Below, piece after piece: positions 45,957-63,800 of a DNA stretch of 63,800 bases. Made by a program: the position numbers and the translations under genes. The number at the start of each line of letters is the position of its first letter. Within the stretch, counting starts at the first letter, position 1. This stretch comes from Minisyncoccota bacterium (GTDB lineage Bacteria > Patescibacteriota > Minisyncoccia > Phycocordibacterales > Phycocordibacteraceae). Below the pieces are notes generated by a model. That model saw nothing but the letters and a program-made list of their open reading frames with translations, did not search any database and was not told where the DNA came from. The DNA is taken from the NCBI GenBank assembly GCA_039927695.1, contig JBDSUM010000020.1, positions 1-63,800 on the forward strand, written 5' to 3'.

Positions 45957-45964
45957 AAGAATGA

Positions 45965-46984
45965 TTATAAGTTGATAAGCTGATCTTCAGTAACTGAACT
46001 TGCTGTCGTTGCTGAGTTAGTAACTTTATTTTCTGAAGTTGAACTTGCTATTTCATTACCAGAGTTGTTTAGGTCGGAAGCTGAATCTTTAATAGCATTT
46101 GAGTTAGAACTCTCGAGACTTAATATATTCTCAGTATATCTAGATTTTGCTATATAAGTAATAGTCTCTCCATCAAGTGAATACTCAGGGTGCATAGCTA
46201 ATTGATAGCCATCTTGATTAGTAAGGCGTTTAAGAGTCTTATCTTGAATACTATATTCCCAGATATCGCCAGCGTTTGCGAAAGCTATACTCATACCATC
46301 TGGCGACCATGCAGCAGGGTAATCCCAATCAATTGGCGTAATCTTTTCCTTATTACTTCCGTCAGAATCCATTATCCAGAGATATTGATTGCCTGGCCTA
46401 AGTAGTAAATCAGATTGCATAAACAGTATCTTATCTCCATGAGGTGACCATCTTAACCAAGTCAATATATTTTGACCTCCTTCCATGATTAACGAGTCTT
46501 CTCCTTCTGGACTTCTAACATATATGTCTGAATTATCAGTTCCTTTCCTGGTTAGTGAATAGACTATATCTGAATTAGAACTGGAATAATAAGCGCTTAT
46601 TGTACCAACGGGTAAGCCAGAATTTTTATAAGAGCCGTCAGTATCCAGAATGTATAATTCTCTGCCTTTTGGGCTTTGAGTTTCTGATAGGAATAATATT
46701 ACTTTAGAACTATCTGGCGACCATGACACGAAACTACCCGTGTGAGGTTTTATAATAGTTCGTCCATTCTCATCGAGAATATACGTCTGAACAACTTCTT
46801 CATTCTTTTGAATTGTAATTGCCTGATATCTTCCATCTGGAGAAGTATAGATATCCTTGCTATCAAAAGGGCTGAGGCCAATTTTCTGCTCAGCAAAAGC
46901 AATTCCTGAGATTATGAAGAAAAGACTCAAAACACTGAATACCGTGCCGAGATTAATCTTTTTATTTATAGTTAAAGTTTTCAT
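45965..46984 (-). CDS. TolB-like/DPP-IV-type beta-propeller repeat protein, anchored or secreted
   Basis: About 339 aa. Repeated WSPDSSKVILF, WSPHGDKILF, WSPDGMSIAF and DGETITY blades. The ATG at 46984 overlaps the M23 gene stop (ATGA). Confidence 0.7.
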   Translation of the reverse strand: MKTLTINKKINLGTVFSVLSLFFIISGIAFAEQKIGLSPFDSKDIYTSPDGRYQAITIQKNEEVVQTYILDENGRTIIKPHTGSFVSWSPDSSKVILFLSETQSPKGRELYILDTDGSYKNSGLPVGTISAYYSSSNSDIVYSLTRKGTDNSDIYVRSPEGEDSLIMEGGQNILTWLRWSPHGDKILFMQSDLLLRPGNQYLWIMDSDGSNKEKITPIDWDYPAAWSPDGMSIAFANAGDIWEYSIQDKTLKRLTNQDGYQLAMHPEYSLDGETITYIAKSRYTENILSLESSNSNAIKDSASDLNNSGNEIASSTSENKVTNSATTASSVTEDQLINL

Positions 46985-48036
46985 AAGGAAGGTGGGTTGG
47001 TTCTCCATAAATATCCCTTATTATTAGTTCTAGGATCTGTAGTTGTAGCACTCCATCCAAATGGATCAATTGATTGACTTGCGTCACCTGTATCGCCCAG
47101 AGTCACTCCAAAGTGTAGGTGCTGGCCAGTAGGCCCGCTTACGCTACCTGTTGCTCCGCTTAAGAGAATAGTGTCTCCTCTATTAACGGTGTCATTCACA
47201 GAAAAGAATGATGATGTGGTGGTAGCATGTGCATAGATGGTAGATTGATCAAATTGAGGGTGATAAATACGCATACGGTATCCATAACCTTGATTGTGAT
47301 TGCTAGGATTTTCCCATCCTAAAGTTTCTACAGTACCGCTTGCAGCTGCCAGTATATTCTTACCCTCAGCATTTGTTCCGAAATCAATTCCATGGTGTCC
47401 GTCGTAACATCCTTGTGCATCCACACAATGACCTGCGCCTATATCTGCATCATTGCCGTAGAAAACTGTTCCATCATATCTGGTCATTTGTGAAGAAGTA
47501 GCGTCATGGTCAAATAAAGAAGTCGTAGTGCTAAAATCGGATAGATCTATCGGTAGGCTGTAATCTGCTAGGAGAAGAGAACTAGCTACGCCAGAGGTTA
47601 CCTTATATGCAATCTGTACTGCTGATCCCGCAGGAGTACTGTGTGTATTGTCAGTCCAAAACCAAGTATAAATTCCATCTCCATGAGAGGTATCAACACC
47701 CTCATACATAAAAGCATGACCTTTCGGATAACTTACAGAATAATCGCAGATATCATGAATATTTAAAAAAGTAGCCCAAGCATCGTCAGCAATCATATGA
47801 TTTGAGGCGTCAGGCCATTGAAGATTCTCCCGCAAAGAACTTTTAATAGGGTTTATGTCGGTATAACACTGACCACTACTAAAGTAAAAATCAATAGGAG
47901 CAATAATCGGCGCAGAACTATATGCGTTATATGGTGGAAGTATTTCAGAATCAACTAATCCACTAGCATAAACTAGAGAAAGAGGAGCAAAGCAGGTAGT
48001 GCTTAAAAGAAAAAATATATAAAATATTCTCTTCAT
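46981..48036 (-). CDS. Secreted M23-family metallopeptidase (peptidoglycan endopeptidase type)
   Basis: 351 aa with a signal peptide. HHGIDFG (HxxxD), the GYRMRIYHPQ..YAH block, and GQHLHFGV (HxH). Confidence 0.85.
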   Translation of the reverse strand: MKRIFYIFFLLSTTCFAPLSLVYASGLVDSEILPPYNAYSSAPIIAPIDFYFSSGQCYTDINPIKSSLRENLQWPDASNHMIADDAWATFLNIHDICDYSVSYPKGHAFMYEGVDTSHGDGIYTWFWTDNTHSTPAGSAVQIAYKVTSGVASSLLLADYSLPIDLSDFSTTTSLFDHDATSSQMTRYDGTVFYGNDADIGAGHCVDAQGCYDGHHGIDFGTNAEGKNILAAASGTVETLGWENPSNHNQGYGYRMRIYHPQFDQSTIYAHATTTSSFFSVNDTVNRGDTILLSGATGSVSGPTGQHLHFGVTLGDTGDASQSIDPFGWSATTTDPRTNNKGYLWRTNPPSL

Positions 48037-48302: not shown

Positions 48303-49634
48303 TTACTCCGCGATAAACGTAAGTGCCTTACCTGTCTTACCAGCGCGGCCAGTACGACCGATGCGGTGCGTGTAGTCTTCGTAGGTTGCAGGCAAGTCAA
48401 AGTTGATGACGTGCGATACACCTGAGATATCAAGTCCGCGTGCAGCAACGTCAGTCGCTACGAGTACGCGAACATGATTCTGCTTGAAGAGACCGAGAGC
48501 CTTCTGGCGGCGTCCCTGAGTCTTGTCTCCGTGAATACTCTCAGAAGGAATGCCCGCGCGATTAAGATCGTTCGTAAGACGCTCAACACCATGCTTGGTG
48601 CGACCGAATACGAGAACCTTATCGAACTCTTTAGCGTCCGAAAGCAAATCTAGGAGCTTCGCAAGCTTATCCTGTGAACGCACACGAACCACGTCCTGGT
48701 CGATAGTCTGCGCCGTGTCGCGAGTCTTCACTGATACACGTGCAGGGTTGTGCAAGAATCCTCCAATGAGTGCTTCGATATCGCGTGAAAGCGTAGCGGT
48801 GAAGAAGAGCGTATGGCGAGGGGTCGGCATAGTGCTCATGATCTCGCGCATGTCATTAATGAATCCCATGTCGAGCATGCGATCAGCCTCGTCGAGAACA
48901 ACCGTGTTGAAGCCTCCGAGTGAGAGAGTACGACGCTCCATAAGATCCTTAAGACGTCCTGGGGTACCAATGACGAAGTTAGGGTTACGTCGAAGTCCGC
49001 GCATCTGGGGTTCGATTCCCGCGCCACCTACACAGGTAACGGCGTTAATCTGGAGACGCTTAGCGAATCCGTAGAACTCTTCCTCGATCTGAATAGCAAG
49101 CTCACGGGTCGGAACCATAATGAGCACACGTTCAGCACGGTTCTTGAGAACCTTGTCGATAAGGGGAATAAGGAATGCAGCAGTCTTGCCGGTTCCGGTG
49201 TTCGCCATACCAACGATATCCTCGCCGTTAAGGACGAAAGGAATTGCCTTGTCCTGAATTGGTGTTGGATGTAGGTATCCCTTTGAGATGATGTTCTGCT
49301 TGAGCTGGTCGTCGATTGGGAAATCAGCGAATGCTACGTCGGGCACGTATGCCACGACATCTTCTTGAGGCTTTGCCTTGTTAATAAGCTTTGAGAGGTC
49401 GACATCCATTTCCTGGTGTCCACGCTTCCCTCCTCCAGAGCGAGAACCGCCTCCGTTTCCACGAGAGCGTCCGCCACCGAAGCTGCTGCCTCCGCGACTG
49501 TTGTTGTCATATGAGCGTCCGCGGTCTCCGCCTCCGCGAGAACCACCTCCGTTACTTGAAGAACCACCGAAATTGCTGCGCGATCCTTGCGGTGCGCGGC
49601 GGCCGTCGGTACGGCGAATATATGTTGTAGCCAT
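48303..49634 (-). CDS. DEAD-box ATP-dependent RNA helicase with a ~80-aa N-terminal RGG-rich extension
   Basis: 443 aa from MATTYIRR. Q-motif region PTPIQ, Walker A ANTGTGKTAAF, VLDEADRML (DEAD), FTAT (SAT-position motif III) and HRIGRTGRAG. The upstream 157 codons of the track ORF are judged non-coding. Confidence 0.9.
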   Translation of the reverse strand: MATTYIRRTDGRRAPQGSRSNFGGSSSNGGGSRGGGDRGRSYDNNSRGGSSFGGGRSRGNGGGSRSGGGKRGHQEMDVDLSKLINKAKPQEDVVAYVPDVAFADFPIDDQLKQNIISKGYLHPTPIQDKAIPFVLNGEDIVGMANTGTGKTAAFLIPLIDKVLKNRAERVLIMVPTRELAIQIEEEFYGFAKRLQINAVTCVGGAGIEPQMRGLRRNPNFVIGTPGRLKDLMERRTLSLGGFNTVVLDEADRMLDMGFINDMREIMSTMPTPRHTLFFTATLSRDIEALIGGFLHNPARVSVKTRDTAQTIDQDVVRVRSQDKLAKLLDLLSDAKEFDKVLVFGRTKHGVERLTNDLNRAGIPSESIHGDKTQGRRQKALGLFKQNHVRVLVATDVAARGLDISGVSHVINFDLPATYEDYTHRIGRTGRAGKTGKALTFIAE

Positions 49635-49929
49635 TTGTTGTTTGTGAAATCCAGCACAAGAGCGCCATAGCAAAGAAAGCGTATGTGTGCGCCAATACCG
49701 GACAGAATAAATTCTGGCGTTAAATCCAGACCCAAGCGGTCTCATGAGTTTCTTGGGTGGACCTTGTAAGGTCTGTGGTCCCGGTAGAGCGCTGTGCGCA
49801 ATAAAAACTTGGAGAACGGTTGTAGGGATAGTATGACAGATTTCTCTATAAAATGCAAATGGGTGCCGGTCAAATGCGAACGACCCCCGTATTGCTACGG
49901 AGGCCGTGTTGGCGGGCGATTGCCGCGCT

Positions 49930-50085
49930 TCAGCTGAGGTGAAAGAACTTGGCGACCGGTGCCGGCAAGCCCCAGATATTGGCCGCGACGGCGACGGCGA
50001 CCAAGGCGACGGCGACCATGACAATAAGAAAGATCGTATTTGTCCGTGCTTTTGCAACGGCCGTTTCGCGCTGATCATAACCCAT
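49930..50085 (-). CDS. Possible 51-aa single-TM protein
   Basis: ATG at 50085, preceded by GGAAGAAGGAAG. TM IFLIVMVAVALVAVAVAANIW. Short and unsupported by homology. Confidence 0.35.
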   Translation of the reverse strand: MGYDQRETAVAKARTNTIFLIVMVAVALVAVAVAANIWGLPAPVAKFFHLS

Positions 50086-50164
50086 CGTTGACTTCCTTCT
50101 TCCATTGCCGTCCTCTTTAACGGCTGCCGTTAGAATACTCCTTCCTACACCTTCGTCAATTGCC

Positions 50165-50963: not shown

Positions 50964-51113
50964 CTAAATAACTTTCTTACCTTGAACTAAACGAACGATA
51001 ATAAGAACGATGGCAATAACAAGGAGAAGGTGCACGAGCCCTCCCAGGGTGTAGGAAGTAACGAGACCTATAGCCCAAAGCACGAGCAAGACAATAGCAA
51101 TAGTCGTAAGCAT
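50964..51113 (-). CDS. lmo0937-family small membrane protein (49 aa, below the ORF-track cutoff)
   Basis: Hand translation: MLTTIAIVLLVLWAIGLVTSYTLGGLVHLLLVIAIVLIIVRLVQGKKVI. It matches the conserved pattern of this small-protein family as I remember it. Confidence 0.65.
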   Translation of the reverse strand: MLTTIAIVLLVLWAIGLVTSYTLGGLVHLLLVIAIVLIIVRLVQGKKVI

Positions 51114-53218: not shown

Positions 53219-53971
53219 CTACAGAAACTCCTTTAACTCTTTCGCATTCTCAATGGCATAGCCGTGGAAATCATTATTGAAATATACGTAAACCCTTTTG
53301 GTCTTCGAGGAGATAGACTTTATATAGCTGCTCCAATCTTTCATTTGTTCTTCTGTATATTTCGAAGCAAATAGCTTTTCTGGTCCGTGAAGGCGAATGT
53401 ATGCGATATCAGCTGTTACCTCACGTACTCCTGGGTATCGGGAAGACTGGGCAGCGACCAAGGCTACATTATATTTCTTTAGCACTGTATATACTTCTTC
53501 GGTAAACCAATATGCATTTCTGAATTCAATCGCAACATCAAACTTATATTCAAGCTTCGCTATTTGCGAAGTGAAATATTTAAGAAAGCGGTCGAGTACT
53601 TTGAGCTCGACCCGAAAACTCGGTGGTAACTGAATTACCATCGCTCCCATCTTTTCTTTGAGAACTTGGGTGGTCGTAAGTATGTGGAGGACTTTTTCTT
53701 TTACTTCGTCATTCAGTTCTAGTTTGTGAACGTGAGTGATGACCTTATTGAGTTTCATTGAAAACTTGTATCCCTCTGGAGTCATTCGTGACCACGTCTT
53801 GTATGTTCCCTCTCCTGCGATGCGGTAGAAGGAGGAATTATTTTCCACGGTATCAAAGAACTTAGAATGGTATTCAAGTTCTCGGTACCCTGTTATTTCT
53901 TTAGGATAAAAGGTGCCCACCCAATGAGGATAGTGCCAGCCCGAAGTTCCTATATATACGTGCGCTTTCAT
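53219..53971 (-). CDS. DUF72 domain protein
   Basis: 250 aa. YIGTSGWHYPHWVGTFYP and later NNSSFY and QLPPSF blocks, typical of DUF72. Confidence 0.8.
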   Translation of the reverse strand: MKAHVYIGTSGWHYPHWVGTFYPKEITGYRELEYHSKFFDTVENNSSFYRIAGEGTYKTWSRMTPEGYKFSMKLNKVITHVHKLELNDEVKEKVLHILTTTQVLKEKMGAMVIQLPPSFRVELKVLDRFLKYFTSQIAKLEYKFDVAIEFRNAYWFTEEVYTVLKKYNVALVAAQSSRYPGVREVTADIAYIRLHGPEKLFASKYTEEQMKDWSSYIKSISSKTKRVYVYFNNDFHGYAIENAKELKEFL

Positions 53972-54198
53972 ACTGATTCACTATGAATAATACTCAGCGC
54001 TAACTATAATTTAGATGAAAGAGACTGTGCCTGAAAGACACTTACTCTATATATGCGCCTACTCAGGTCAATTAATGCGAGCAGTCGTGGGTGTGCGGCG
54101 GATTAAAATAACTTTGAGCGAATATGAACGAATAGAGACAGGCGGCCTATATAAAATGAGTAGTACTTAGAGTCGGTAAAATATTATAAATTACCCCT

Positions 54199-54645
54199 TT
54201 AGTTAGGCTGTTGTATATGGAAATATAGTATTTTCCATATACCACCTTCTTTAAGTAGTCTTATATCAATATCAGCTGAACCTTTCTCGAAATCAGCTTT
54301 GGCCACATATTCGGCAGATATCGTTTGTTTTCCATTATTTATATGAATACCTGACTCACCAGTGGAGCCATTATATTTCTTCATTGAACCAAGACCATCG
54401 CGTGCAGAAGCTATGAAAGCATTTGCTTGATCTTTGTTCATTATTACCAATAACTCAGGACTACTGTGATCAATAAGCTCATTTGAGTTCCAGTTTGAAA
54501 CAATCTTAGGCACTTCGTTATCTACCCACGCTTTACTTTCTTTATCATAAGCAGTTCCTTTAATGCTGGCATAGATGAAAAATGAAATGATAGCCAAAAT
54601 TAGAACTATACACGCTATTCCTAATCCTATTAAAATCCTCTTCAT
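54199..54645 (-). CDS. Membrane-anchored hypothetical protein
   Basis: 148 aa. An N-terminal TM, then a soluble domain of about 115 aa. AT-rich; third gene downstream of the giant toxin gene. Confidence 0.5.
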   Translation of the reverse strand: MKRILIGLGIACIVLILAIISFFIYASIKGTAYDKESKAWVDNEVPKIVSNWNSNELIDHSSPELLVIMNKDQANAFIASARDGLGSMKKYNGSTGESGIHINNGKQTISAEYVAKADFEKGSADIDIRLLKEGGIWKILYFHIQQPN

Positions 54646-54673
54646 AAATTAATAGACATTGTTTAAGGTTGCT

Positions 54674-54892
54674 CTAAAAATAAAAGAGAAACGCTCCAAG
54701 AATAAAGACTAGACTAAATATAAGAATAAACCCCTCGAATGTAGAGAAGGCTCTTTCTGCGGCAATCGAACTGAGACCGAACTTTGAGAAATATCCAACC
54801 CCTCTTTTGTTAAAGTCTTTGTTTTTATCGACAGATAATAACCATCCTATTAGGACTAGCGCTAGTAGAGCAAAGATGGCTGGTATATACAT
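54674..54892 (-). CDS. Hypothetical two-TM protein (candidate immunity paralogue)
   Basis: 72 aa with TM-loop-TM topology. Second gene downstream of the giant toxin gene. Confidence 0.5.
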   Translation of the reverse strand: MYIPAIFALLALVLIGWLLSVDKNKDFNKRGVGYFSKFGLSSIAAERAFSTFEGFILIFSLVFILGAFLFYF

Positions 54893-54984
54893 AGTTTTAT
54901 TATTTATAATTCTTATCTTTTTTCTGTTGTTGAGTAAGTTGCGTTAGGTTAGAGACAACAGGTCATGAGGGTGAAATAGATAAT

Positions 54985-55236
54985 CTAGCGAAAAAGCCAA
55001 TTATAGCCAAGAAATATAAAGATGATGCCTACGCAAAGAAAATAAGGTGTTATTTGAGCTAATAAATTCTTTGCAGATTCACTAGGATTGGAAGATTTTT
55101 TAAAGAAACGAGCTGCTGACCAAACTATGAAATTATAATTGCCTATCCAGTTTGTATAAATTACAAATATTAACAGAAGTATCCCTAAGAGAAATACCGG
55201 AACAGAAACTATATATTCGTTAATTAATGTATTCAT
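54985..55236 (-). CDS. Hypothetical two/three-TM protein (candidate cognate immunity)
   Basis: 83 aa. It starts 4 nt after the stop of the giant RHS-type gene. Confidence 0.55.
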   Translation of the reverse strand: MNTLINEYIVSVPVFLLGILLLIFVIYTNWIGNYNFIVWSAARFFKKSSNPSESAKNLLAQITPYFLCVGIIFIFLGYNWLFR

Positions 55237-55240
55237 GAGT

Positions 55241-58200
55241 CTATTTAGAATTAGTTTTCTTGAAGTCTTTACTATTAGAAGTCTGAGTTCTATTTGCTAC
55301 ATTTTTTATAAGGTTAACCTCTGCAGTAAATAAACTGACAACATCAGTCATTCCTCCTACTTTCTCACCAGCGAGTGCAGGAATTGTATTATATGCAGCT
55401 GTAACAGCAGCTTTTGCCCTGACATATGGATCTTTTGACTTCAGCCCTGAAGAGACTATGTCAATAGTGTTAGGGATATTCCTAAGAGCTTCATAAGTCA
55501 AGTATGAATAACCTGCTGTTTGCAGAGCTCTTCCTGCAAGGAATGATGTGCCTGCACTTAGATTAGTCGTTGTTACTGCTGCAACAGAACTCATACCGGC
55601 CTCAGCGACTGGTACTGACAATACACCCACTCCCATTCCCGCGACAATTGGATGACTTAATGCCGTTCCCCATGTTGAATTTACTTGTGGTAAATAAGTT
55701 GCGGCGCTATTAATTTCATTCCCAAAACTTGAGAACGACTGCTGGCCACTGAGTAATTCTCCATACCAGAGCCCTGTAGGATCTGATTTTGTGATTGGAT
55801 TGTCTCGAGCGTATGAATATGAGTTTAGACTCTGAGGATCTGAGAGGACTGTAGCCTGATCTATACCGGCAAGACTCTTCAATTTCTGTGGATCGCCAAT
55901 TGCGAGGAATGTAGGGTCCTCTGACAAGAACTGCCCTCTCGCAGGATCCTGATACCGTGCATTCAAATAATTGAGTCCCGTACTTCCGTCATACTGCTGC
56001 CCTATGTATTTACGCTGCTCAAGTGGCGAACCAGTATCAATTCGTAACGCTCCATACGGATAGTAGTCTGTGGTTTCGTTTAGGTGCCCGAGTGAATTGC
56101 TGGTGACATTCGTTGAGCCCAGATTGTCTGCATGGAGGTACGTGTAGGTCTGTGTAGATGAAGAGAGTTGGTACGTAGCAACAGGGTTACCTTGCGTATC
56201 GTAGATATGGTCTGTAGTGGTTGTTCCGCTGATGTTGTACAGATTGTTTGGGTTGCTGGTGGTGACTCCTCCAATCACCGTCTTTATTCGTTGTGAGAGG
56301 TAGTCATAGAAATTAGTGGTCGTAGTGCTACCCGTTACACTACCTGTCATTCGATTCTTATAGTCCCACTGATAGGTTGTAGTGCCGTAGTTAGTTAGGT
56401 TTCCATTGTTGTCGTACGTTAACGCTGTGGCACCAATAGTGGTAGGTGCGTGTGGGTTCGCATACCCTGTTCCAGCGTAGGTGTAGTTACCTACGTCAGA
56501 CTTATTTGTGAAGTTACCCAGAAGGTCATATGTGTACGATTGCGAGAATGGTAAGGTGCTGGCCGCAGTGGTGGATGCGTTTAGGAGTCTGTTGAGACTG
56601 TCGTATGTAAATCGTTCAACCTTTCCGGCAGTGGTACCAGAAAGATCATTTATCTGAAGAATGTTTCCATTATTGTCATATGTGTAGAAAATATCTTGCA
56701 GGTCTGCTGTCGCAAGCCCTGAAGCAATTCCAAAAGTAGCAGTGGTTGTACTCCATGCTCCTACGGAATCTTCGCTATTCCAAAAACGGATACGCCAGTC
56801 GTAGGCACTTCCCGAAATCAACGTTTGACCACTATAGGTAACGGGCTGTATTTGTATCCCACTCGGAGTGCTACTCGCCAACGTCTGCTTTAAAGAATCC
56901 CACGTGGGGGCAATCCATCCTGCTCCAGAATTTGTTACTTGGATTTCATAACTCGACGCAGTATCTGTAGCAATGGTGTTGTTATAGGTTGCAGTGAAAG
57001 TTGGTGTCGTACTTGATAGCGACATTGGACTCGTGGTTCCATTTACTAAGAGATTTGTTGGCGCGCTTGGGTTGTACCAAGGCGCAATACTGAATGATGC
57101 TGTTTCTGTACTCCAAACGCTTGGGCTATTGAATGAATCCCAAAACCGTATTCGCCAGTAGTACGGTGTAGACGCGCTCATGGGAGAACCGCCGTATATA
57201 ATATCTGGCGAACGTGCACCATTCGTAGTAGATGCTGTTATTGCATGCTGTGAACTGTCCCAGAAAGGATTTGTCCAAATTGTAGAGGATGTAGAAATTT
57301 GAAGCTGGTAATTTGTTGCGTAGTCTCCTACGTCTGCATCACTAAACAGAGCAGAAAATGATGGGGTGTGATTTCCCAGAGTTGTTGGATTTGCCTGACC
57401 CTCTGTAAGAAGGGTGTTTGGCGTACCCGGAGCTAACGAATAGGTAATTACAAGTTGTGGCGCGGTACTTACACCTGATTCTGCAGAAGCCCAGTTTGTG
57501 TCGTAGGTAGTTGAAGCTGTGGGAGCGATATTATACATATCGTTATACGTCTTTACACCAAAATGAGATATTCCCGCATTTGTAATTTGAGCTATTCCTG
57601 CAGGAGTTAAGTTAATTTGGTTATATGCATTTGTGATATACGTACCAGACGACGAGCCCACAGCAATATTTCCTAGGGTCGCGTAATCATTTAGATATAC
57701 ACGATCGTCGTGATAAGGAGCTGCCGTAGTTATAAATACTCTATTCTCCGAACCTGATTGAGTATGAATCGTGATATAGAGGTTGATACTTGCACTTGAA
57801 ATGACGGCTCTGCTATCTAGTGATGTTGCATTAAAGCCTATAAGTGCTCGGGTAATCCCGTAAAAGTCTGGTCCGTACCCTGTACCATATTTAGCGTTAA
57901 CTCCTTCATGAGTACTTAAGTAATCATAATTATTTGAAGCCGGATAATCCCATTCAGAAAACCAGTCAGTAAAATTATCTAGGTACATATTTCCATCAGC
58001 ACCATACGCTCCCTCGCCCGCGCCTGGATAAAATGTTGCTCCCGTTGCCAAGGCTCTCTGTGGTACAAAGAAACTAATCAATGCATCGATAAAACTCTTT
58101 GGGGCGGGCTTCATTTGCGCATCAAATGCTGTTGGGGTTGTGACCGCATATGATGCAAGCCACCAACTGCCATCAGTATCTTTGTAGTAGCTTGGTTCAC

Positions 58201-61200
58201 CCGAATTTATCTCTGCAACAAATACTTGTGGATTATTGGTTGCGAATGTTCTGGTCGTAGCAGTTCGCTTTCCCACAACTTCACTGCCTAGAATAACTCC
58301 ATCTTTACGAGCTTCTTTGAGGGTTCCATCACTCGCTGGAAGATTATCGACCGATATGTTTGTTCGGTACGCGTATTTGATTAATCCTTCTTTAAGTAAA
58401 ATTTCGCCTAGAATACTTACCCGCGGAGCTTTCAACGCTAGCTCGGGAGAATTATCTGGAAGCATCTTAAGTTCATCGGCAAAAGTGCGTTGAAACTTTT
58501 GTGTAGTACTCGCTGTGAATCCTGACTGAGTAGTAGTGGCAAGCAAAATGGTACTTGCATCAGGCAGATTAAGTGTTGGAATAATCTTTGGGAGACTTTG
58601 TTCTGCGCTTGAAGTTGTTGCAGTAGTAGTTGACGCTATCGAACCGTCAGTGGTAGAAGCTGAGACATCAGGCACATCTTTTTTGTCTTTACTACTTTGC
58701 ATGGAAGTAGATGCGTCGACTTTAGGTACGTCAGGCTGAGTTGCTGGTGTGGTTGAGTCTGCTGAGGCCGCTGGGTAAAAAGTAGGCTGATATGTTGGAT
58801 CATCGTTGAATGCCAAGATTATCTTTTTGTTTATATCTTTGAAGCTTAGTAGTGACGATGTTGCAGTCTGTGTAGTTGCTGGTGATCGGCTTTCAGTAGT
58901 TGTTGCAGACATTGCAGGAGTAACCATTAACGTACCGAAACCTGAAGAAGAGACTGTCTGTATGCGAGATAGCCGGTAAAGATGTGCTGCATCGTAGGTA
59001 TTTGTAGTTGTAACTCCGTTTCCAAATTGCTTGTAGGCTATTTGACTAGTGGGAGAATAATTAAAATTGGTAACAATACCTGTATATGTATTTGCACCAG
59101 ATGGCTTTTGACTTATGGATTCAAGTAATCCTGCGTTGTTATAGGTATAAAGCACCTGAGAATTATCAGGATACGTAATACTTGTGGTATTTCCGAGACG
59201 ATCAAATGCCCTGAAAGTAGAATAATTTACTCCTCCTATAGCCTCCTTCTCTTGAACGGTGTTTCCCGAAATATCATAAGCGTATGATGTTGTGGCGGTA
59301 GAAGTTGCTACAGTTGCAGAGCAAAGGTGACCGATACCAAATGCACATGAATCATAGACATAGGTCGTCTCAATTCCCGTGAGTCCAGAATAATCTTCAG
59401 TAAGGGGACGATTTAATAGATCATATGTGTAATTTATTACTTGATTCTTAGGATCAGTCTGCTGTGTCAGATTACCCGTATCATCGTACACAGAATTCCA
59501 AGCACCATAGGATGAATCCGCGGTGGGATGTAAATCCTCAGCTCGTAAGCGTCTACCTAAGAGATCGTAGTTAAAGTTACGTACGTTTCCAGCCGCATCA
59601 ATGATTTTAGTTAGATAATTATTACCGTTATAGACGTATTGAGTTGTCCCAGAGAGAGAACCTGGATGCTCTATAATGCTCGATAGATTTCCGTATGCAT
59701 CTTTGTAAGCATCTTTAACATTATTATTTGGATCAATTGTTGTTACATGCCACGGACTATATGAATTTATTGTTGAACCTACGGAATTAGTAATTCGAAG
59801 AGGACGTTGTAACGGGTCATAAGCATATGTTGTTAAGAGAGACGTTGAGGGCGGTAACGTGACTCCTGTATACGAGGTCCCAGATCCAAAATAAGGAAGA
59901 GATTGCGAGGAAAGTAATCCGACACCGTTATAGTACGAATCCTTTACAGCATAGGTACTTGTTCCTTCAGCTTGCGCTCGTGACTCTACTTCCCTGCCAT
60001 AACCGTCCTTATAAAGATATGTATGTACACTAGAAGTTGCATTGAGATAATCTATTTGATGTGTAAGTCGAGGCATTCCTGTGTCTGTATATATAAATTC
60101 CGTGCTCGTAGACAGGGTAGAGGTCGCAATAGGATCTGGCTTTAATACTCCAATTAAACGATTGAGGAGGTCGTACGTATTCTTTTTTACAAATCCATTT
60201 GGATCAGTCGTTCTAGTAGGCTGGCCGTTGTAATAGTTATATAGAAAGGCCGTGCTTTGTGAAAAAGAGTTAGTTACTTTTGCTGGATACAGATTGTATG
60301 TATCATATACATATGTAGTTGTTGCGGAACGAGGATTTATTTCTTGCGTAACAAGACCGAACGAATTATAGACTTTTCGTATTGATTGAATAAACGTACT
60401 TGATGCTGTCTTTAAGTCATCTTGTTCCGTCATGTTTCCTTTCGCGATTGAACCAAGACCGAGTCCGTCATAGAGGTATCGAGTATCACCAAGTAAGGCA
60501 TTATTCTGATCAAGTGTTATTTTTTCAGATACCTTACTAAAAGGTAGAGTCGTGCTCGCAGCGTAGCTAAGATTTGTAATGCGCTCGTCGGTGCCTATAT
60601 CTGTAAAAGAACCATCGTCTCCTAAAGCTGAAACTTCACCCCATGATATTTTCTGTAACAGATCTCCCGTAGTGGTACTGTATGAGGATTCTTCTGCTAC
60701 TACTTTAGGGGTCGAGCCTCCGTCGTAATCATAGGACGTGGTGCGTATCGGCCATATAAAATTAGCTAAGCCACGAATCACATTATCCCATTTTGTTATA
60801 AGTACTTTAAAAAGTGTTGTTGCAGAATTATAGTTTTCTACACGATATACCTTTCCGATTTTTGATTGAGTATCAAGATATTCACCAGTACTCGTAGCAC
60901 TACCATTTCCAGTGTGGAAATACGAAGTACTCTTATTTCCTACTGCATCAGTCTTTGTAATGCTTCCGAAGCCGCCGGAACGTCTGTCTGTAGAGCTTCC
61001 AAAGTAAAGGGTTCCATCTTTGTATTGATACGACTCTGTTGAAGTAGCAGCTACGCCATCATATGTCTGAATTTTTTGTACTGCGGGAAAGAATGATGCG
61101 AGTTTTGGATTCAGGAGATTATTGTTACTATCTCGAAATTTACTCGTAGATTGATATGTTGGGGTAATTTGTTTGCCACCTGATTCTGTCACGTGATTGA

Positions 61201-63391
61201 GGAGATCGGCCGCGTCGCCCAATGCAAATTGAATTCCTCCGTAATTATAAATACTTATAAAACTACTAACCATTAAATCACTCAGTCCATTGCCACTTAT
61301 ATTTCCCGTTCGTGGACCAACATCCCCATAGCTATCCGGATTGGATATAAAGTATGGAAGAGGTATGAATCTTGAGGGGTCATATTTCCAACCGGAACCT
61401 GTATTAAGATATGAGAAATTAGTAGTCCAGGAGAAACTTGCCGGATTATTGGTGTACGGTAAATATCCTACGGCTGAAGAAACATCAGGCAAGCCATCGC
61501 CATTGAGATCTGAAATTATCATTCCCGGCTGTTGGGCTTGAAGTGAGCCAGGGAGAATCCATGTTGGATCATTGGTCCATCCATGTCCATTGTTTATATA
61601 AGCCTGATTCTGAACACCATAATTTCCATCCATCCCTTGCAAGATATCAGCAAGACCATCGCCATTTATATCCGCCAAAACTCCGCCGCCCGCTCTTCCT
61701 GTATCATTGGTAAATATAACCGGCAGTCCATTTGGATCAATTGGGATGTTCCATGAGTAATTACGAGCCCATCCGGAACCAGTATTTAAATACACTTGCT
61801 GGGTATATAAAAAGGAGGAATTTGATGGAACGAACTTTCTGTCTGAATACACCAAATCCACTAACCCATCCCCGTTTATGTCACCAAACCTAACTCCCAT
61901 ATCTGTATATTTACCTAAGGCAGAATCAAGGTAATTCATACTAACAGGTGTATCCCAAGTGGAGCTTGCCATCCAATTCGTACCAGTATTTATAAATACA
62001 CTATTAGTACATATAAAATCTGGGAGTCCATCTCCATTAACGTCCACCAATCTTCCTCCTCCGTCATCTGTATAGTGCGGTTCGACAATGAAATTACAAG
62101 GCGGGTTAAATGTTGGTGAATAACTTGTTGACCATCCGGAACCAGTATTTAAATACACTCCCCTTGAGACTGAATATCCTAGATTTTCATACGATTGGAC
62201 CAGGTCTGCAAGACCATCTCCATTAACATCTGCCATGGATATACCTCTATCTGTACCATTTTCTACAAAATTACCGGCAGGATTACTCCACGTACTCGTA
62301 GCCATGGCTGACGTAGAAGTTGAGTAGTTGAAGGTAGTTGGTGGAAGCGCAAGAGTAGTAGAAGCATTCTTTCCTATCTCAGTTATATTCTTTAGTAGTG
62401 TTCTAACAGAGTTATCACCGGCACCATATCCAAGCGTGTAACTTTTCGTTGTTGAGCCATTTATTTGTATGTCGATTTGATTCACCTGATATCTGGTCTT
62501 TACAGGAAAGCCTGCGGCCGAAGATGTAGCCGTGGACGTTGCCAGCAAGCCAAGAGTAAAATTTATTGCAAACGGGGGTGTCGACGTTGAAGTATTATTA
62601 GCACTATAGGTGATTGATGAGGGGTATATTTGACCCAAATCTTTTGAGTAAGTATAGGTAATACTGTTACCGTTTGTATCTATCTGCTTCTGGAGATACC
62701 ACCTGAATATTTTCGTACTTGTCGTGTCATCTTGCCGACTTTGAGGGGCGAGACCAAATCTATAAATCGTACCCGCCTTATCGACGGCAGTCCAAGCATT
62801 ATTGCCAAAACTGTATTGCATATTGGATCCATCATCATTTCTTGCAACAAACATTGCACTTGTACTTGTGGCAGTAAGCTCTCCTGACACTGATGAATAA
62901 AAAAATGTTGAAAGAGTCGTGGTTGAATATAAGTCATCAAGACCAGTTTTGTTATATCTCTGAATATACGGAATCGAGAGTCCCCATCCATATCCAAATC
63001 CGGTATCAGAATGATCGTTTGAAGAATATGACAGCATAAGATCAGGAGTCATTCCTGATCTTCCTGGAGGTATTGAAAATGTAAACTGGTATGCAAATGT
63101 ACCAGGCTGACTGCCCCTGCTAGGATCAATGACGTTTCCCGTACTTACAGCTTCTTTACTGCTTATAGGTATTGGTTGAGTACCGCCGCCGCCAGCTGAC
63201 ATAGGACTCAGGGTGGAAGCTTTTGATGCGGTTACAGAAGGGCTCTTAGCTGTAGCCACTTTTGTAGGCGCAGGAGCAATTGAGGCTGCGAAGCTGAAAA
63301 GTGGTGCGCTTAAAAGAAAAAAGAGGGCTAGAAAGACCACCTCTTTTTTAAAAGTGGAGAGAGCGCACACCATCCGGTGAGTGTTCCTCAT
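55241..63391 (-). CDS. Giant secreted RHS/YD-repeat polymorphic toxin with a Tc-toxin TcB/TcC-like fused architecture
   Basis: 2716 aa. Signal peptide; SpvB-type N-domain (FTFSIPPGRSGMTPDLMLSYSS); six DxNGDGxxD FG-GAP/VCBS blades; YD repeats; RHS core ending DPTGL; a 175-aa C-terminal domain. Confidence 0.9.
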   Translation of the reverse strand: MRNTHRMVCALSTFKKEVVFLALFFLLSAPLFSFAASIAPAPTKVATAKSPSVTASKASTLSPMSAGGGGTQPIPISSKEAVSTGNVIDPSRGSQPGTFAYQFTFSIPPGRSGMTPDLMLSYSSNDHSDTGFGYGWGLSIPYIQRYNKTGLDDLYSTTTLSTFFYSSVSGELTATSTSAMFVARNDDGSNMQYSFGNNAWTAVDKAGTIYRFGLAPQSRQDDTTSTKIFRWYLQKQIDTNGNSITYTYSKDLGQIYPSSITYSANNTSTSTPPFAINFTLGLLATSTATSSAAGFPVKTRYQVNQIDIQINGSTTKSYTLGYGAGDNSVRTLLKNITEIGKNASTTLALPPTTFNYSTSTSAMATSTWSNPAGNFVENGTDRGISMADVNGDGLADLVQSYENLGYSVSRGVYLNTGSGWSTSYSPTFNPPCNFIVEPHYTDDGGGRLVDVNGDGLPDFICTNSVFINTGTNWMASSTWDTPVSMNYLDSALGKYTDMGVRFGDINGDGLVDLVYSDRKFVPSNSSFLYTQQVYLNTGSGWARNYSWNIPIDPNGLPVIFTNDTGRAGGGVLADINGDGLADILQGMDGNYGVQNQAYINNGHGWTNDPTWILPGSLQAQQPGMIISDLNGDGLPDVSSAVGYLPYTNNPASFSWTTNFSYLNTGSGWKYDPSRFIPLPYFISNPDSYGDVGPRTGNISGNGLSDLMVSSFISIYNYGGIQFALGDAADLLNHVTESGGKQITPTYQSTSKFRDSNNNLLNPKLASFFPAVQKIQTYDGVAATSTESYQYKDGTLYFGSSTDRRSGGFGSITKTDAVGNKSTSYFHTGNGSATSTGEYLDTQSKIGKVYRVENYNSATTLFKVLITKWDNVIRGLANFIWPIRTTSYDYDGGSTPKVVAEESSYSTTTGDLLQKISWGEVSALGDDGSFTDIGTDERITNLSYAASTTLPFSKVSEKITLDQNNALLGDTRYLYDGLGLGSIAKGNMTEQDDLKTASSTFIQSIRKVYNSFGLVTQEINPRSATTTYVYDTYNLYPAKVTNSFSQSTAFLYNYYNGQPTRTTDPNGFVKKNTYDLLNRLIGVLKPDPIATSTLSTSTEFIYTDTGMPRLTHQIDYLNATSSVHTYLYKDGYGREVESRAQAEGTSTYAVKDSYYNGVGLLSSQSLPYFGSGTSYTGVTLPPSTSLLTTYAYDPLQRPLRITNSVGSTINSYSPWHVTTIDPNNNVKDAYKDAYGNLSSIIEHPGSLSGTTQYVYNGNNYLTKIIDAAGNVRNFNYDLLGRRLRAEDLHPTADSSYGAWNSVYDDTGNLTQQTDPKNQVINYTYDLLNRPLTEDYSGLTGIETTYVYDSCAFGIGHLCSATVATSTATTSYAYDISGNTVQEKEAIGGVNYSTFRAFDRLGNTTSITYPDNSQVLYTYNNAGLLESISQKPSGANTYTGIVTNFNYSPTSQIAYKQFGNGVTTTNTYDAAHLYRLSRIQTVSSSGFGTLMVTPAMSATTTESRSPATTQTATSSLLSFKDINKKIILAFNDDPTYQPTFYPAASADSTTPATQPDVPKVDASTSMQSSKDKKDVPDVSASTTDGSIASTTTATTSSAEQSLPKIIPTLNLPDASTILLATTTQSGFTASTTQKFQRTFADELKMLPDNSPELALKAPRVSILGEILLKEGLIKYAYRTNISVDNLPASDGTLKEARKDGVILGSEVVGKRTATTRTFATNNPQVFVAEINSGEPSYYKDTDGSWWLASYAVTTPTAFDAQMKPAPKSFIDALISFFVPQRALATGATFYPGAGEGAYGADGNMYLDNFTDWFSEWDYPASNNYDYLSTHEGVNAKYGTGYGPDFYGITRALIGFNATSLDSRAVISSASINLYITIHTQSGSENRVFITTAAPYHDDRVYLNDYATLGNIAVGSSSGTYITNAYNQINLTPAGIAQITNAGISHFGVKTYNDMYNIAPTASTTYDTNWASAESGVSTAPQLVITYSLAPGTPNTLLTEGQANPTTLGNHTPSFSALFSDADVGDYATNYQLQISTSSTIWTNPFWDSSQHAITASTTNGARSPDIIYGGSPMSASTPYYWRIRFWDSFNSPSVWSTETASFSIAPWYNPSAPTNLLVNGTTSPMSLSSTTPTFTATYNNTIATDTASSYEIQVTNSGAGWIAPTWDSLKQTLASSTPSGIQIQPVTYSGQTLISGSAYDWRIRFWNSEDSVGAWSTTTATFGIASGLATADLQDIFYTYDNNGNILQINDLSGTTAGKVERFTYDSLNRLLNASTTAASTLPFSQSYTYDLLGNFTNKSDVGNYTYAGTGYANPHAPTTIGATALTYDNNGNLTNYGTTTYQWDYKNRMTGSVTGSTTTTNFYDYLSQRIKTVIGGVTTSNPNNLYNISGTTTTDHIYDTQGNPVATYQLSSSTQTYTYLHADNLGSTNVTSNSLGHLNETTDYYPYGALRIDTGSPLEQRKYIGQQYDGSTGLNYLNARYQDPARGQFLSEDPTFLAIGDPQKLKSLAGIDQATVLSDPQSLNSYSYARDNPITKSDPTGLWYGELLSGQQSFSSFGNEINSAATYLPQVNSTWGTALSHPIVAGMGVGVLSVPVAEAGMSSVAAVTTTNLSAGTSFLAGRALQTAGYSYLTYEALRNIPNTIDIVSSGLKSKDPYVRAKAAVTAAYNTIPALAGEKVGGMTDVVSLFTAEVNLIKNVANRTQTSNSKDFKKTNSK
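55244..55768 (-). other. C-terminal cargo (toxin) domain, 175 aa, of unrecognised family
   Basis: It lies after DPTGL. Gly/Ala-rich hydrophobic stretches (HPIVAGMGVGVLSVPVAEAGMSSVAAV). No nuclease, deaminase or ART motif was recognised. Confidence 0.6.
55769..56699 (-). other. RHS/YD-repeat block 2 with the RHS core, ending at the DPTGL motif (aa ~2231-2541)
   Basis: DIFYTYDNNGNIL, FTYDSLNRLL, YTYDLLGNF, LTYDNNGNL, YYPYGALR, RKYIGQQYDGSTGLNYLNARYQDPARGQFLSEDP, and DPTGL at 55769-55783. Confidence 0.85.
56700..58949 (-). other. Non-RHS module of about 750 aa inserted between the RHS blocks
   Basis: An S/T-rich linker, an unknown domain, a DNRLRE-like beta-sandwich (TRALIGFNATSLDSRAVISSASINLYI), and two tandem ~119-aa FN3-like repeats ending YWRIRFWDS..WS and DWRIRFWNS..WS. 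Confidence 0.65.
58950..61204 (-). other. RHS/YD-repeat block 1 (aa ~730-1481)
   Basis: Many YxYDxxGNL/RL-type repeats (YVYDTYNLYP, NTYDLLNRLIG, FNYDLLGRRL, YTYDLLNRPL, YAYDISGN, YTYNNAGLL). Confidence 0.85.
61232..62254 (-). other. FG-GAP/VCBS beta-propeller region (aa ~380-720)
   Basis: DVNGDGLADL, DVNGDGLPDF, DINGDGLVDL, DINGDGLADI, DLNGDGLPDV and NISGNGLSDL. Most are followed about 20 aa later by YLNTGSGW-type motifs, with a 60-65 aa period. Confidence 0.8.
62342..63139 (-). other. SpvB/TcB N-terminal-like domain of the giant protein (aa ~85-350)
   Basis: PPGRSGMTPDLMLSYSS, GFGYGWGLSIP and WYLQKQIDTNGNSITYTY blocks. Confidence 0.7.
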
Positions 63392-63498
63392 AATACGTTG
63401 TTACCTATACAGTAGCCCGAACTATTCAATAACCTGATTTAAAGCTGTGGACATCTTTATTTTGAGGACTTCTGCGAATCTTAACTCTCTCCTTTTTG

Positions 63499-63519
63499 CC
63501 GCATCCATTCTGGATGCGG
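63499..63519. terminator. Hairpin between mltG and the giant toxin gene
   Basis: CCGCATCCA-TTC-TGGATGCGG. The T-run lies on the plus-strand side and an A-run on the other, so its orientation and efficiency are uncertain. Confidence 0.5.
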
Positions 63520-63524
63520 TATTT

Positions 63525-63800
63525 TTATTTCAAATACTTATTAACATTACTCTTCTGTCCTCCATACGTAACAGAACAATGAATATCGTGGCTCGCGTCA
63601 TGGAGGTAGAAAAGGCAATTCGTACTTTCAGGATTGAGTACTGCAGCGATAGACTCAAGGCTCGGGTTATTGATAGGGTGCGGCGGAAGACCAGTGTGTT
63701 GGTACGTATTAAAAGGAGACTTTAGATATTTGTCGGCACTTAAGGGCGTGGGCCACCAATTCCCTTCTGTTCCCTTTATATATTGCAGCGTTGCATCTGC
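63525..63800 (-). CDS. mltG: Endolytic transglycosylase MltG (YceG-like), C-terminal 91 codons only; the gene continues beyond the window
   Basis: Hand translation of the minus strand: ..SPFNTYQHTGLPPHPINNPSLESIAAVLNP..CLFYLHD..H..SVTYGGQKSNVNKYLK, stop at 63525-63527. It is absent from the ORF track because no start codon lies in the window. Confidence 0.75.
   Translation of the reverse strand, partial: ADATLQYIKGTEGNWWPTPLSADKYLKSPFNTYQHTGLPPHPINNPSLESIAAVLNPESTNCLFYLHDASHDIHCSVTYGGQKSNVNKYLK

Follow-up and report, generated by a model that had tools for sequence, protein, structure and literature searches.

What is a protein of 2716 residues, built like the fused TcB and TcC subunits of a Tc toxin and apparently exported, doing in a small-genome bacterium with no TcA partner in sight? 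The question was raised by an earlier note on this locus, which lies in a window of 63.8 kb from the genome of a member of the Patescibacteria (CPR). The reading we favour, with a probability of about 0.72, is that the gene belongs to a toxin–immunity island encoding a Sec-exported, single-chain Rhs/YD antibacterial toxin of the “TcdB/TcaC-type” in a Parcubacteria/Paceibacterota-like member of the Patescibacteria.

Such a reading presupposes a sound gene, and the earlier note had raised the possibility of a frame that was interrupted or collapsed in assembly. The reading frame is unbroken over its full length. The only DNA repeats in the gene are short (31–43 nt) and diverged, stem from the propeller blades, and thus do not hint at a collapsed repeat; independent assemblies from NCBI, JGI, ENA and Logan contain homologues that share the architecture, insert included. 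Collapse of repeats during assembly was ruled out on these two grounds, the lack of long DNA repeats and the shared architecture. An exact-sequence look-up of the 2716-aa protein gave no match; the database version (P0001) has 2653 aa and begins at M64. The order of domains read earlier from the letters (SpvB, propeller, RHS, insert, RHS, core, tail) was borne out by Pfam and NCBIfam, in which the SpvB, FG-GAP, RHS_repeat and RHS core profiles all matched, and the lengths proposed for the later segments (about 750, 750, 310 and 175 aa) are right to within 10 aa. The coordinates of all features are collected in Table 1.

Table 1. Features of the toxin gene and its surroundings, in positions of the window; residue numbers refer to the 2716-aa protein.
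Feature	Position	Strand	Basis or remark
Whole gene: 2716-aa exported Rhs/YD polymorphic toxin with TcB-like N-terminal half (candidate)	55241..63391	(-)	
Signal-peptide-like N-terminus, aa 1-36	63284..63391	(-)	Hydropathy; lost in database gene call starting at M64
SpvB/TcaC-type N-terminal domain, aa 96-375	62267..63106	(-)	Pfam SpvB; profile against structures
Six-bladed FG-GAP (integrin-like) beta-propeller, aa 376-725	61217..62266	(-)	FG-GAP_3, DxNGDG motifs
RHS/YD shell, first part, aa 726-1485	58937..61216	(-)	RHS_repeat; PDB matches to Tse15 and other Rhs proteins
Insert, aa 1486-2225, 740 aa, at family-wide hot-spot	56717..58936	(-)	Insert mapping in 119 relatives
Insert: S/T-rich linker	58478-58936	(-)	
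Insert: beta-rich D1	58049-58477	(-)	
Insert: beta-sandwich D2	57434-58048	(-)	
Insert: two FN3/Ig domains	56717-57433	(-)	Pfam Ig_Rha78A_N x2, E=5.8e-23
RHS/YD shell, second part, aa 2226-2441	56069..56716	(-)	PDB Rhs matches over 2220-2499
RHS-associated core with predicted aspartyl autoproteolysis site (…LSDPQSLNSYSYARDNPITKSDPTG|L)	55769..56068	(-)	TIGR03696
Polymorphic C-terminal toxin tail, 175 aa (candidate)	55244..55768	(-)	After DPTG|L
imm83: 83-aa two-TM ORF, cognate immunity candidate	54985..55236	(-)	4 nt past toxin stop; GC 0.30
imm72: 72-aa two-TM ORF, second (orphan or extra) immunity candidate	54674..54892	(-)	HMM match
148-aa ORF with N-terminal TM helix, inside island	54199..54645	(-)	GC 0.35
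Strain-specific island between mltG and typA	53220..63525	(.)	Sibling genome comparison

At the N-terminus, residues 18–30 form a hydrophobic 13-mer (Kyte-Doolittle 2.55) followed by SFAAS|IAP; the signal peptide claimed earlier stands, by hydropathy, as a signal-peptide-like segment, and a similar hydrophobic N-terminus is present in 94 of 120 relatives. The SpvB domain is recognized by Pfam from residue 96 onwards (E=1.3e-14, 54.6 bits), and a profile of the family matches the SpvB N-domain structure 6p0x (6e-9) together with TcdB1 and YenB. The FG-GAP and FG-GAP_3 profiles match six stretches between residues 368 and 719 (62.9 bits for FG-GAP_3), in keeping with the six blades counted before. 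Five DxNGDGxxD motifs are canonical, at 388, 450, 504, 574 and 628, and a degenerate one, GNISGNGLSD, lies at about 696. Over the propeller region the family profile matches both YenB and TcdB1 (profile positions 343–833 against residues 342–797 of the latter), and it also aligns with integrin alpha propellers. PF12256, which was used to look for the TcdB_toxin_midN/midC domains, reaches 32 bits (cut-off 24.8) in a match that spans only 23 residues and overlaps with the first FG-GAP blade; the same profile is matched in several relatives. These profile matches establish homology to TcB for the N-terminal half of the protein, made up of the SpvB domain and the propeller with its six FG-GAP blades.

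The shell that follows is matched by the Pfam RHS_repeat profile in seven stretches within residues 720–1484, at about 73.3–77.9 bits (cut-off 22), and its two parts are contiguous in 40 relatives that lack the insert. The Rhs_assc_core model (TIGR03696) covers residues 2443–2541 with 50.4 bits (cut-off 32.5) and ends in NPITKSDPTG|L, where the bar marks the predicted cut. This end fits the motif given for TcC by Song 2021, PxxxxDxxG, and the cleavage motif is conserved across 116 relatives. The same kind of evidence makes the C-terminal half, RHS repeats and RHS core together, homologous to TcC and other Rhs proteins.

The family to which the protein belongs numbers 618 homologues at E<=1e-10, and those with a name are almost all from Patescibacteria. 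Among solved structures, the family profile matches TcdB2-TccC3 best (E=1.9e-58), followed by T6SS Rhs proteins (1e-37), TcdB1 (3.9e-30) and YenB (1e-22); the three Tc matches support the earlier description of a single-chain, BC-like cocoon. “TcdB/TcaC-type” polymorphic toxins were defined by Zhang, de Souza, Anantharaman, Iyer and Aravind (2012, Biol Direct 7:18, Table 1). In the passages on this class, it is characterized by a signal peptide, SpvB, an integrin-like beta-propeller, RHS repeats, a variable toxin and a linked immunity gene (Imm-Barstar), all of which are found in the present protein or in its sister proteins. Patescibacteria are absent from the phyla listed in those passages of 2012, and the tail and both two-TM immunity families of the present locus have no Pfam entry. 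In a scan of genome contigs, which samples the taxonomic range without covering it in full, the architecture class occurs in many phyla among the matches listed. The gene adds a member to a class already described and is not a new kind of system; the idea of an orphan insecticidal toxin was set aside in favour of this class of antibacterial polymorphic toxins, known since 2012 and widespread. Since the class stands alone without TcA and is present in many phyla, the TcA partner that the earlier note had framed as missing is probably not missing.

What, then, would such a toxin carry? The tails of 116 relatives, whose core motif is conserved, fall into 36 clusters (“36 tail clusters and 19 singletons”, as separately counted), so that the C-terminus is as polymorphic as had been surmised; the family has many other tails in place of the 175-aa one that follows DPTG|L. 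Neither Pfam nor NCBIfam gave a significant match to the tail, SLATT_1 being rejected as sub-threshold (E=0.078), and the tail on its own drew no match at E<=1e-3 in a word-indexed search. An exhaustive profile search did recover a tail family of 142 representative clusters, in every case C-terminal to an RHS core. Two subdomains can be told apart in it: a modular N-subdomain of ~80 aa (WYxE..G.QS..F..E.G.A…W..A..HP..G..VG plus a Gly/Ala-rich hydrophobic stretch) and a helical C-subdomain specific to the tail family. The N-subdomain alone also precedes the nuclease domain Tox-REase-7 in another protein, and for this reason it may be a translocation module; the locus of that protein (L087) is short, and its downstream ORF resembles SecG. 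The AF2 model of the tail is all-alpha and weak (pLDDT 62); at this pLDDT it gave no fold match in Foldseek and contains no recognizable catalytic or pore-forming fold.

Members of the tail family co-occur with small predicted two-TM ORFs directly downstream: in all four loci with readable downstream DNA, a tail homologue is paired with an ORF from one of two such families, and it is this co-occurrence in other genomes that makes the two-TM ORFs of the window immunity candidates. With an HMM made from the ORFs behind the tail homologues of three loci (L001, L002 and L003), imm72 comes out at the top of 756 ORFs of the window (E=3.4e-12), and in reciprocal blast imm72 matches only the ORFs following the tail homologues of those loci. 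The same HMM misses imm83 (E=1.6), which is linked to the tail family only via the locus L005, where a full-length gene is followed by an orphan cassette of tail plus immunity ORF. There, a 91-aa ORF directly after the closest tail homologue (P0125) is 34% identical to imm83 over 82 aa (E=3e-8); it is the sole match of imm83 among 9596 ORFs of 87 loci, in which search E is only 5.6e-4, and similarity between small TM proteins such as these can be inflated by composition. Neither imm83 nor imm72 has a significant match in Pfam or NCBIfam, and the 148-aa ORF has none there and no homologue in the related loci. Comparative evidence of this kind points to a putative cognate immunity gene immediately downstream of the toxin gene. 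Sister proteins offer a more familiar version of the arrangement, with a barnase tail that is followed by a Barstar gene in one of them, and with Ntox44, Ntox21, Tox-REase-7 and ART-HYD1 as further known toxin domains. The two-TM immunity candidates, in turn, point to bacterial targets.

The surroundings of the gene fit an accessory element. TypA of the host is 87–98% identical to Parcubacteria/Paceibacterota proteins, which places the host in the CPR and agrees with the small-genome bacterium supposed before; the mltG gene reported upstream is there as well, in the form of the C-terminal end of MltG/YceG. Two sibling genomes whose TypA is 98% identical (L085 and L086) match the window at 63526–63800 and again from 53219/53220 downwards, and between those points they have MarR-MFP-MFS genes instead. 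The locus is a strain-specific island, consisting of the RHS gene, the two immunity candidates, the 148-aa ORF and DUF72, with low GC in the immunity ORFs. Given its absence from the two siblings, what the earlier note called a very large investment for a compact genome is a putative accessory weapon and not a core investment.

The insert occupies a shell loop that is an insertion hot-spot throughout the family. When the same shell loop was mapped in 119 relatives, 40 had no insert and 79 had one of 200–1820 aa, and the modules found at this hot-spot vary, with Ig/FN3, ConA-like lectin, BNR propeller and Gly-rich types among them. The AF2 model of the present insert (pLDDT 79) has Foldseek matches to the lambda gpJ tail tip, FN3 arrays, and phage minor tail and host-specificity proteins. 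Its D1 and D2 domains have no significant match in Pfam or NCBIfam, and an assignment of D2 as a DNRLRE/CBM96 domain was dropped for lack of HMM support. The position of the insert in a short inter-repeat loop suggests that it faces outward. Large modules at one fixed shell loop do not appear in the passages of Zhang 2012 on the SpvB/TcdB class, nor in the consulted text of the other papers cited here.

These elements can be put together in a working model. After Sec export, the YD shell would fold round the tail while the SpvB/propeller end shuts the cocoon, and the RHS core would act as an aspartyl protease whose cut at DPTG|L leaves the toxin free within the cocoon. At a loop in the wall of the shell, the insert would form a protruding adhesin- or tail-fibre-like array of two beta-sandwich and two FN3 domains and bind the surface of the target cell. 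Once released, the tail would be a membrane-acting (pore-forming or depolarizing) antibacterial toxin, its hydrophobic N-subdomain mediating membrane insertion, and the producer would be shielded by membrane-embedded immunity proteins, imm83 and, as an extra one, imm72. TcA would not be required.

Several known systems resemble parts of this scheme. The C-terminal fragment of Tse5 from Pseudomonas aeruginosa forms pores that depolarize membranes and is neutralized by a small membrane immunity protein. Its mode of action is the one proposed here, and the core region of this T6SS Rhs effector (PDB 8CP6) aligns with ours; Tse5 is, however, delivered by the T6SS via PAAR/VgrG, and the two tails have no sequence similarity. 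WapA has cell-wall-binding repeats and is not known to have an SpvB/propeller module; the toxins known from it are nucleases, and the matching immunity proteins are cytosolic. WapA of Bacillus subtilis and Streptococcus suis (compare PMC12704120) is, like the present protein, an Rhs protein of a monoderm with a signal peptide for export, a polymorphic toxin and adjacent immunity (WapI); it is Sec-dependent, wall-associated and used in contact-dependent competition. The family profile also matches the structures of bacterial teneurin-like proteins (TLPs) at 2e-25, with 9pt5 aligned over profile positions 1182–1814, the YD shell only. Teneurins have an NHL-type propeller, and of the teneurin superfold (TTR, FN-plug, NHL propeller, YD shell) the YD shell alone is shared. 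The TLPs (Raoelijaona et al. 2026, Nat Commun 17:2753; PDB 9PT5/9IFO) are Sec-exported YD shells that encapsulate a polymorphic CTD of about 15 kDa and bear variable adhesion domains; their immunity gene lies immediately downstream, and one CTD permeabilizes membranes from outside the cytoplasm. They differ from our protein in using a TTR/FN-plug and a TIP domain where it has a TcB-type SpvB and FG-GAP module, and in having the adhesin modules at the N-terminus instead of inside the shell sequence.

How does this reading fare against its rivals? The likeness to TcdB2-TccC3 of Photorhabdus (PDB 4O9X/6H6E), the best structural match, and to YenB-YenC extends over the SpvB-type N-domain, the FG-GAP propeller (aligned with TcdB1 and YenB), the RHS cocoon and the RHS core with its PxxxxDxxG motif, and it could mean that this is a genuine BC subunit of a Tc (ABC) toxin aimed at eukaryotic cells, with TcA elsewhere in the genome or coming from another cell. 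Natural B-C fusions and orphan TcCs far from TcA are on record (Song 2021), and our view takes in 63.8 kb of the genome. We nevertheless consider a Tc toxin very improbable. The remark that no TcA, T6SS or T7SS genes lie nearby holds over the entire window, in which there are no genes for TcA, VgrG, PAAR or ESX, and no TcA-type protein was found within ±10 kb of five related loci (L001–L005). Here a single chain bears a putative Sec-type signal, whereas Tc toxins leave by lysis, according to a passage of PMC10847048. The tail has 175 aa and immunity-type ORFs stand downstream, the barstar behind a sister protein being another case, as against TcC HVRs of 201–400 aa and no dedicated immunity gene (Song 2021). 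The 740-aa insert, too, is a point of difference, placed in the TcC-equivalent part of the shell, and so is the monoderm CPR host, known TcC proteins being 96.4% from Proteobacteria and 3.2% from Firmicutes (Song 2021).

It is also conceivable that the protein is mainly a teneurin-like surface adhesin or scaffold, with the tail as a membrane anchor or structural plug and the TM ORFs as its partners. CPR bacteria live attached to hosts, the insert is adhesin-like, and the tail is Gly/Ala-rich and hydrophobic, with no enzymatic motif. A mere anchor fits poorly, however, with a tail that follows a conserved autoproteolysis motif, is swapped among close relatives and also turns up in an orphan cassette together with a small ORF, or with the bona fide toxin domains of the sister proteins, and the siblings do without the locus; we regard an adhesin as improbable. 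The remaining rival keeps the toxin and changes the victim: it would be directed at the episymbiont's host cell, in predation or manipulation, and not at competing kin, the immunity genes only preventing self-intoxication. That the genome is of the Patescibacteria, that the binding modules of the hot-spot are variable and tail-fibre-like, which suggests a fit to diverse foreign surfaces, and that some tail-family loci have Bacteroidota-looking neighbours (Por_Secre_tail, TonB/SusR) all speak for it, but arrays of orphan toxin and immunity genes, like a surplus immunity gene, are hallmarks of conflict with kin or competitors, and a host-cell target seems to us unlikely.

With an antibacterial toxin–immunity island as the preferred reading, the locus has consequences beyond the single gene. 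Patescibacteria have tiny genomes and no T6SS- or TcA-type machinery in the regions seen, yet they carry large mobile Rhs toxin–immunity islands; SpvB/propeller-type islands of this kind in CPR can therefore be regarded as candidate weapons, whether in competition or in interactions with a host. Two leads follow. One is a helical, hydrophobic putative toxin family with two-TM immunity candidates. The other is the conserved insertion hot-spot in the cocoon wall with its diverse binding modules, which could explain targeting by cocoons without TcA and may be useful to those who engineer Rhs/Tc cocoons into protein carriers. More speculatively, and with the odds clearly against it, the fixed Rhs-shell loop may be a plug-in site for interchangeable receptor-binding modules which, together with the hydrophobic entry subdomain, turns these proteins into autonomous toxin-delivery particles, perhaps against host or prey. 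If this were true, targeting and membrane translocation, the part played by TcA in Tc toxins, would be built into one polypeptide, and ultra-small CPR episymbionts may use such particles on their host or prey cells.

The RHS gene is a single uninterrupted reading frame, and profile searches of its product bore out every domain element listed in the earlier note, which had been made from the sequence alone. The N-terminus carries a strongly hydrophobic h-region (residues 18-30) followed by SFAAS/IAP. It is lost in P0001, the database call of this protein (2653 aa), which begins at M64; since a similarly hydrophobic N-terminus is present in 94 of 120 relatives, M1 is the better start. Collapse of repeats in the assembly, which the earlier note had raised against its own reading, is an unlikely artefact, because the blade repeats are short and diverged at the DNA level and homologues of the same architecture are found in independent assemblies. 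The gap separating the mltG stop from the start of the RHS gene has a GC-rich hairpin with a T-run, which may be a terminator dividing the two transcription units.

Features of the RHS locus, its relatives and the rest of the window
Feature	Position	Size	Detail
RHS gene	55241..63391 (-)	2716 aa	
SpvB	RHS protein		E=1.3e-14
FG-GAP/FG-GAP_3	residues 368-719		six stretches
RHS_repeat	RHS protein		73 bits
Ig_Rha78A_N x2	residues ~1990-2222		
RHS-associated core TIGR03696	residues 2443-2541		ends NPITKSDPTG/L
Candidate cognate immunity ORF	54985..55236	83 aa	begins 4 nt past toxin stop
Putative extra or orphan immunity ORF	54674..54892	72 aa	
Two-TM ORF, L001		87 aa	
Two-TM ORF, L002		71 aa	absent from the source's gene calls
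Two-TM ORF, L003		74 aa	
Two-TM ORF, L005		91 aa	
Orphan array, L005	3319..10552		behind full-length family gene P0101
Hairpin and T-run	63495..63525 (+)		GCCGCATCCattctGGATGCGGt
M23 and PD40/Tricorn-like propeller pair	45937..47566		~5 kb beyond typA
Same pair, sibling L085	7484..9097		between mltG and typA
Large serine recombinase	946..2439 (+)		Resolvase, Recombinase, Zn_ribbon_recom
DEAD-box helicase ORF	48303..50105 (-)	600 aa	helicase domains from ~residue 281
Lys/Ala-rich protein	44551..45042 (-)	163 aa	one N-terminal hydrophobic segment
Highly hydrophobic ORF	50964..51113 (-)	49 aa	between typA and DAGK gene

With the single RHS protein sequence as query, the PDB returned matches to T6SS Rhs structures only. 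A family profile, built from the protein and 24 relatives without the insert, matched the TcdB2-TccC3 fusion best, in three stretches (E=1.9e-58), and also T6SS Rhs effectors (E ~1e-37), TcdB1 (3.9e-30; profile 343-833 against residues 342-797), teneurin-like proteins (2e-25), YenB (1e-22), the SpvB N-domain (6e-9) and integrin alpha propellers (~1e-5). On these matches the N-terminal half is of TcB type and the C-terminal half of TcC/Rhs type, at the level of homology, and the BC-like single chain proposed earlier was a correct structural reading.

This architecture is that of an existing class: the 'TcdB/TcaC' polymorphic toxins, as Zhang et al. define them (2012, Table 1), have a signal peptide, then SpvB and an integrin-like beta-propeller, together with RHS repeats and toxin tips of many alternative kinds, which are paired with immunity proteins, Imm-Barstar among them. 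Searching with the full-length protein gave 618 relatives at E<=1e-10, the closest other than the protein itself only 40-50% identical. The top 120 (1830-3900 aa) have SpvB, FG-GAP and RHS in nearly all cases, and their named members are Patescibacteria almost without exception. Among species-representative genomes, full-length matches (query ~90-2540) occur in at least Saccharibacteria, several Proteobacteria classes and Firmicutes, with Myxococcota, Bacteroidota, Verrucomicrobiota and Leptospirales also among the matches listed. A 2487-aa RHS/YD toxin with an immunity gene alongside has been noted in a Saccharibacteria genome.

The C-terminal polymorphism that the earlier note had wanted checked is plain to see. 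The core end NSYSYARxNPIxxxDPxG is kept in 116 relatives, and the tails behind it (125-233 aa) form 36 clusters, 19 of them singletons. Toxin domains in sister proteins include barnase, Ntox44, Ntox21, Tox-REase-7 and ART-HYD1; at L004 a Barstar gene lies 4 nt after a barnase-tailed family gene. The window tail has no match in Pfam, and its predicted all-helical model (pLDDT 62, low confidence, lowest in a Gly/Ala-rich hydrophobic middle) gave no fold match in a structure search. An exhaustive search with a tail profile found 142 representative clusters, 88 of them at E<=1e-10, always C-terminal and, in 16 of 16 clusters read through, directly after the RHS core end. Because many of these matches cover profile positions 1-80 only, and P0199 joins the same N-subdomain to a Tox-REase-7 nuclease domain, the tail looks bipartite, with a modular hydrophobic N-subdomain, possibly for membrane entry, and a family-specific C-subdomain.

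Each of the loci with tail homologues (L001, L002, L003, L005) has a small two-TM ORF directly downstream. An HMM of those from L001-L003 ranked the 72-aa ORF first of 756 window ORFs (E=3.4e-12; runner-up 0.025). The 83-aa ORF shares 34% identity (E=3e-8) with the ORF after P0125, whose tail is the closest to that of the window (47% identity). No other matches to either ORF were found among 9596 ORFs of all 87 loci compared. Since every immunity candidate for tails of the full-length type is a membrane protein, we infer that the tail would act on membranes, in the manner of Tse5 and of a bacterial teneurin-like protein with a membrane-permeabilising CTD (Raoelijaona 2026).

P0125 is itself an orphan cassette of RHS core fragment, tail and small ORF. 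It stands in L005 among several small ORFs and an HTH gene, and farther along is a second orphan YD-shell fragment (544 aa), accompanied by further small ORFs. Together they form a classic multi-cassette Rhs orphan array in a CPR genome. L002 and L003 hold full-length homologues of the window tail, with matching two-TM ORFs, among neighbours resembling Bacteroidota mobile elements (Por_Secre_tail, TonB-dependent receptor, SusR, integrases, TraG), which suggests that the toxin-immunity module has crossed phyla. Recombinase or integrase genes adjoin family members in L001-L004; those immediately upstream in L001 and L002 are like the window's serine recombinase, which is itself distant from the RHS island.

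The flanks of the insert (residues 1486-2225) were traced in 119 relatives. The shell is contiguous in 40, where ~7-12 residues join two YD repeats; inserts measure 200-500 aa in 16, 500-900 aa in 48 and at least 900 aa in 15, and none falls at 20-200 aa. The mapped inserts all occupy one position, bounded by query residues 1480 and 2226, and differ in their modules (Ig_Rha78A_N pairs, ConA-like lectin with DUF2341, Sortilin/BNR propeller, Gly-rich domains). In some relatives (P0019, P0020, P0030, P0040, P0078) modules stand elsewhere: an additional one of D2 or lectin-like type follows a few YD repeats further on, or an Ig/D2 module lies near the N-terminus (residues 610-873 in P0078), so this loop is the main site rather than the sole one. 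A model of the window insert that used 12 homologues (pLDDT 79.4) shows an S/T-rich disordered linker, beta-rich D1, beta-sandwich D2 and two FN3/Ig domains. Its Foldseek matches in the PDB include gpJ, the tail-tip protein of lambda (9e-10), N-terminal Ig domains of rhamnosidases and FN3 arrays; those in BFVD, with E down to 1e-21, include FN3, minor tail and host-specificity proteins of phages. The fold matches and the shared site thus make it a clean domain insertion into a shell loop, by its model an adhesin-like or tail-fibre-like array, which would point outward and serve binding.

By sequence comparison the RHS locus is accessory, an island missing from two sibling genomes whose TypA is 98% identical. 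These agree with the window at the mltG end (63526-63800) and again from typA down (53219/53220 and below), and have MarR, MFP, MFS and other genes where the window has the RHS cassette. The GC content is 0.425 in the RHS gene, 0.30-0.37 in the small ORFs and 0.465 in the window. The differing place of the M23/PD40 pair indicates that the interval has also been rearranged.

Upstream of the RHS gene is encoded the MltG/YceG C-terminus, and the remaining sizeable ORFs are housekeeping genes, including class I aaRS, LepA, MurJ, RNR, GroEL, RNase J, TsaD, TypA, DAGK, a DEAD helicase, M23 peptidase, DsbA-like and PAP2 proteins. TypA is 87-98% identical to Parcubacteria, Paceibacterota or Patescibacteria proteins, which places the host among the CPR bacteria, in line with the small-genome host proposed earlier. 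The DEAD-box ORF probably has an internal start; ahead of the helicase domains it has a Gly/Arg/Ser-rich stretch and an odd Pro/Ser-rich extension, and sibling calls are 444-446 aa. The Lys/Ala-rich protein has no real Pfam match, and the 49-aa ORF is probably the DUF5670 small membrane protein called at the same position in siblings.

Is the protein, then, a Tc toxin that has lost its partner? The TcB/TcC likeness speaks for it, and Proteobacteria are known to have natural B-C fusions as well as orphan TcCs (Song 2021). No TcA, VgrG, PAAR or ESX-like protein is found among the sizeable ORFs of the 63.8-kb window, and the earlier note had likewise seen no TcA nearby. We set the orphaned Tc toxin aside, given the immunity-candidate genes, the orphan arrays and the prior description of the class, all of which that note overlooked while its observation and structural reading stood. 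These three lines argue instead for an antibacterial polymorphic Rhs toxin with no need of TcA, to which we give a probability of roughly 0.7. The tail and immunity families are uncharacterised and deserve follow-up, as does the insertion hot-spot in the shell wall.
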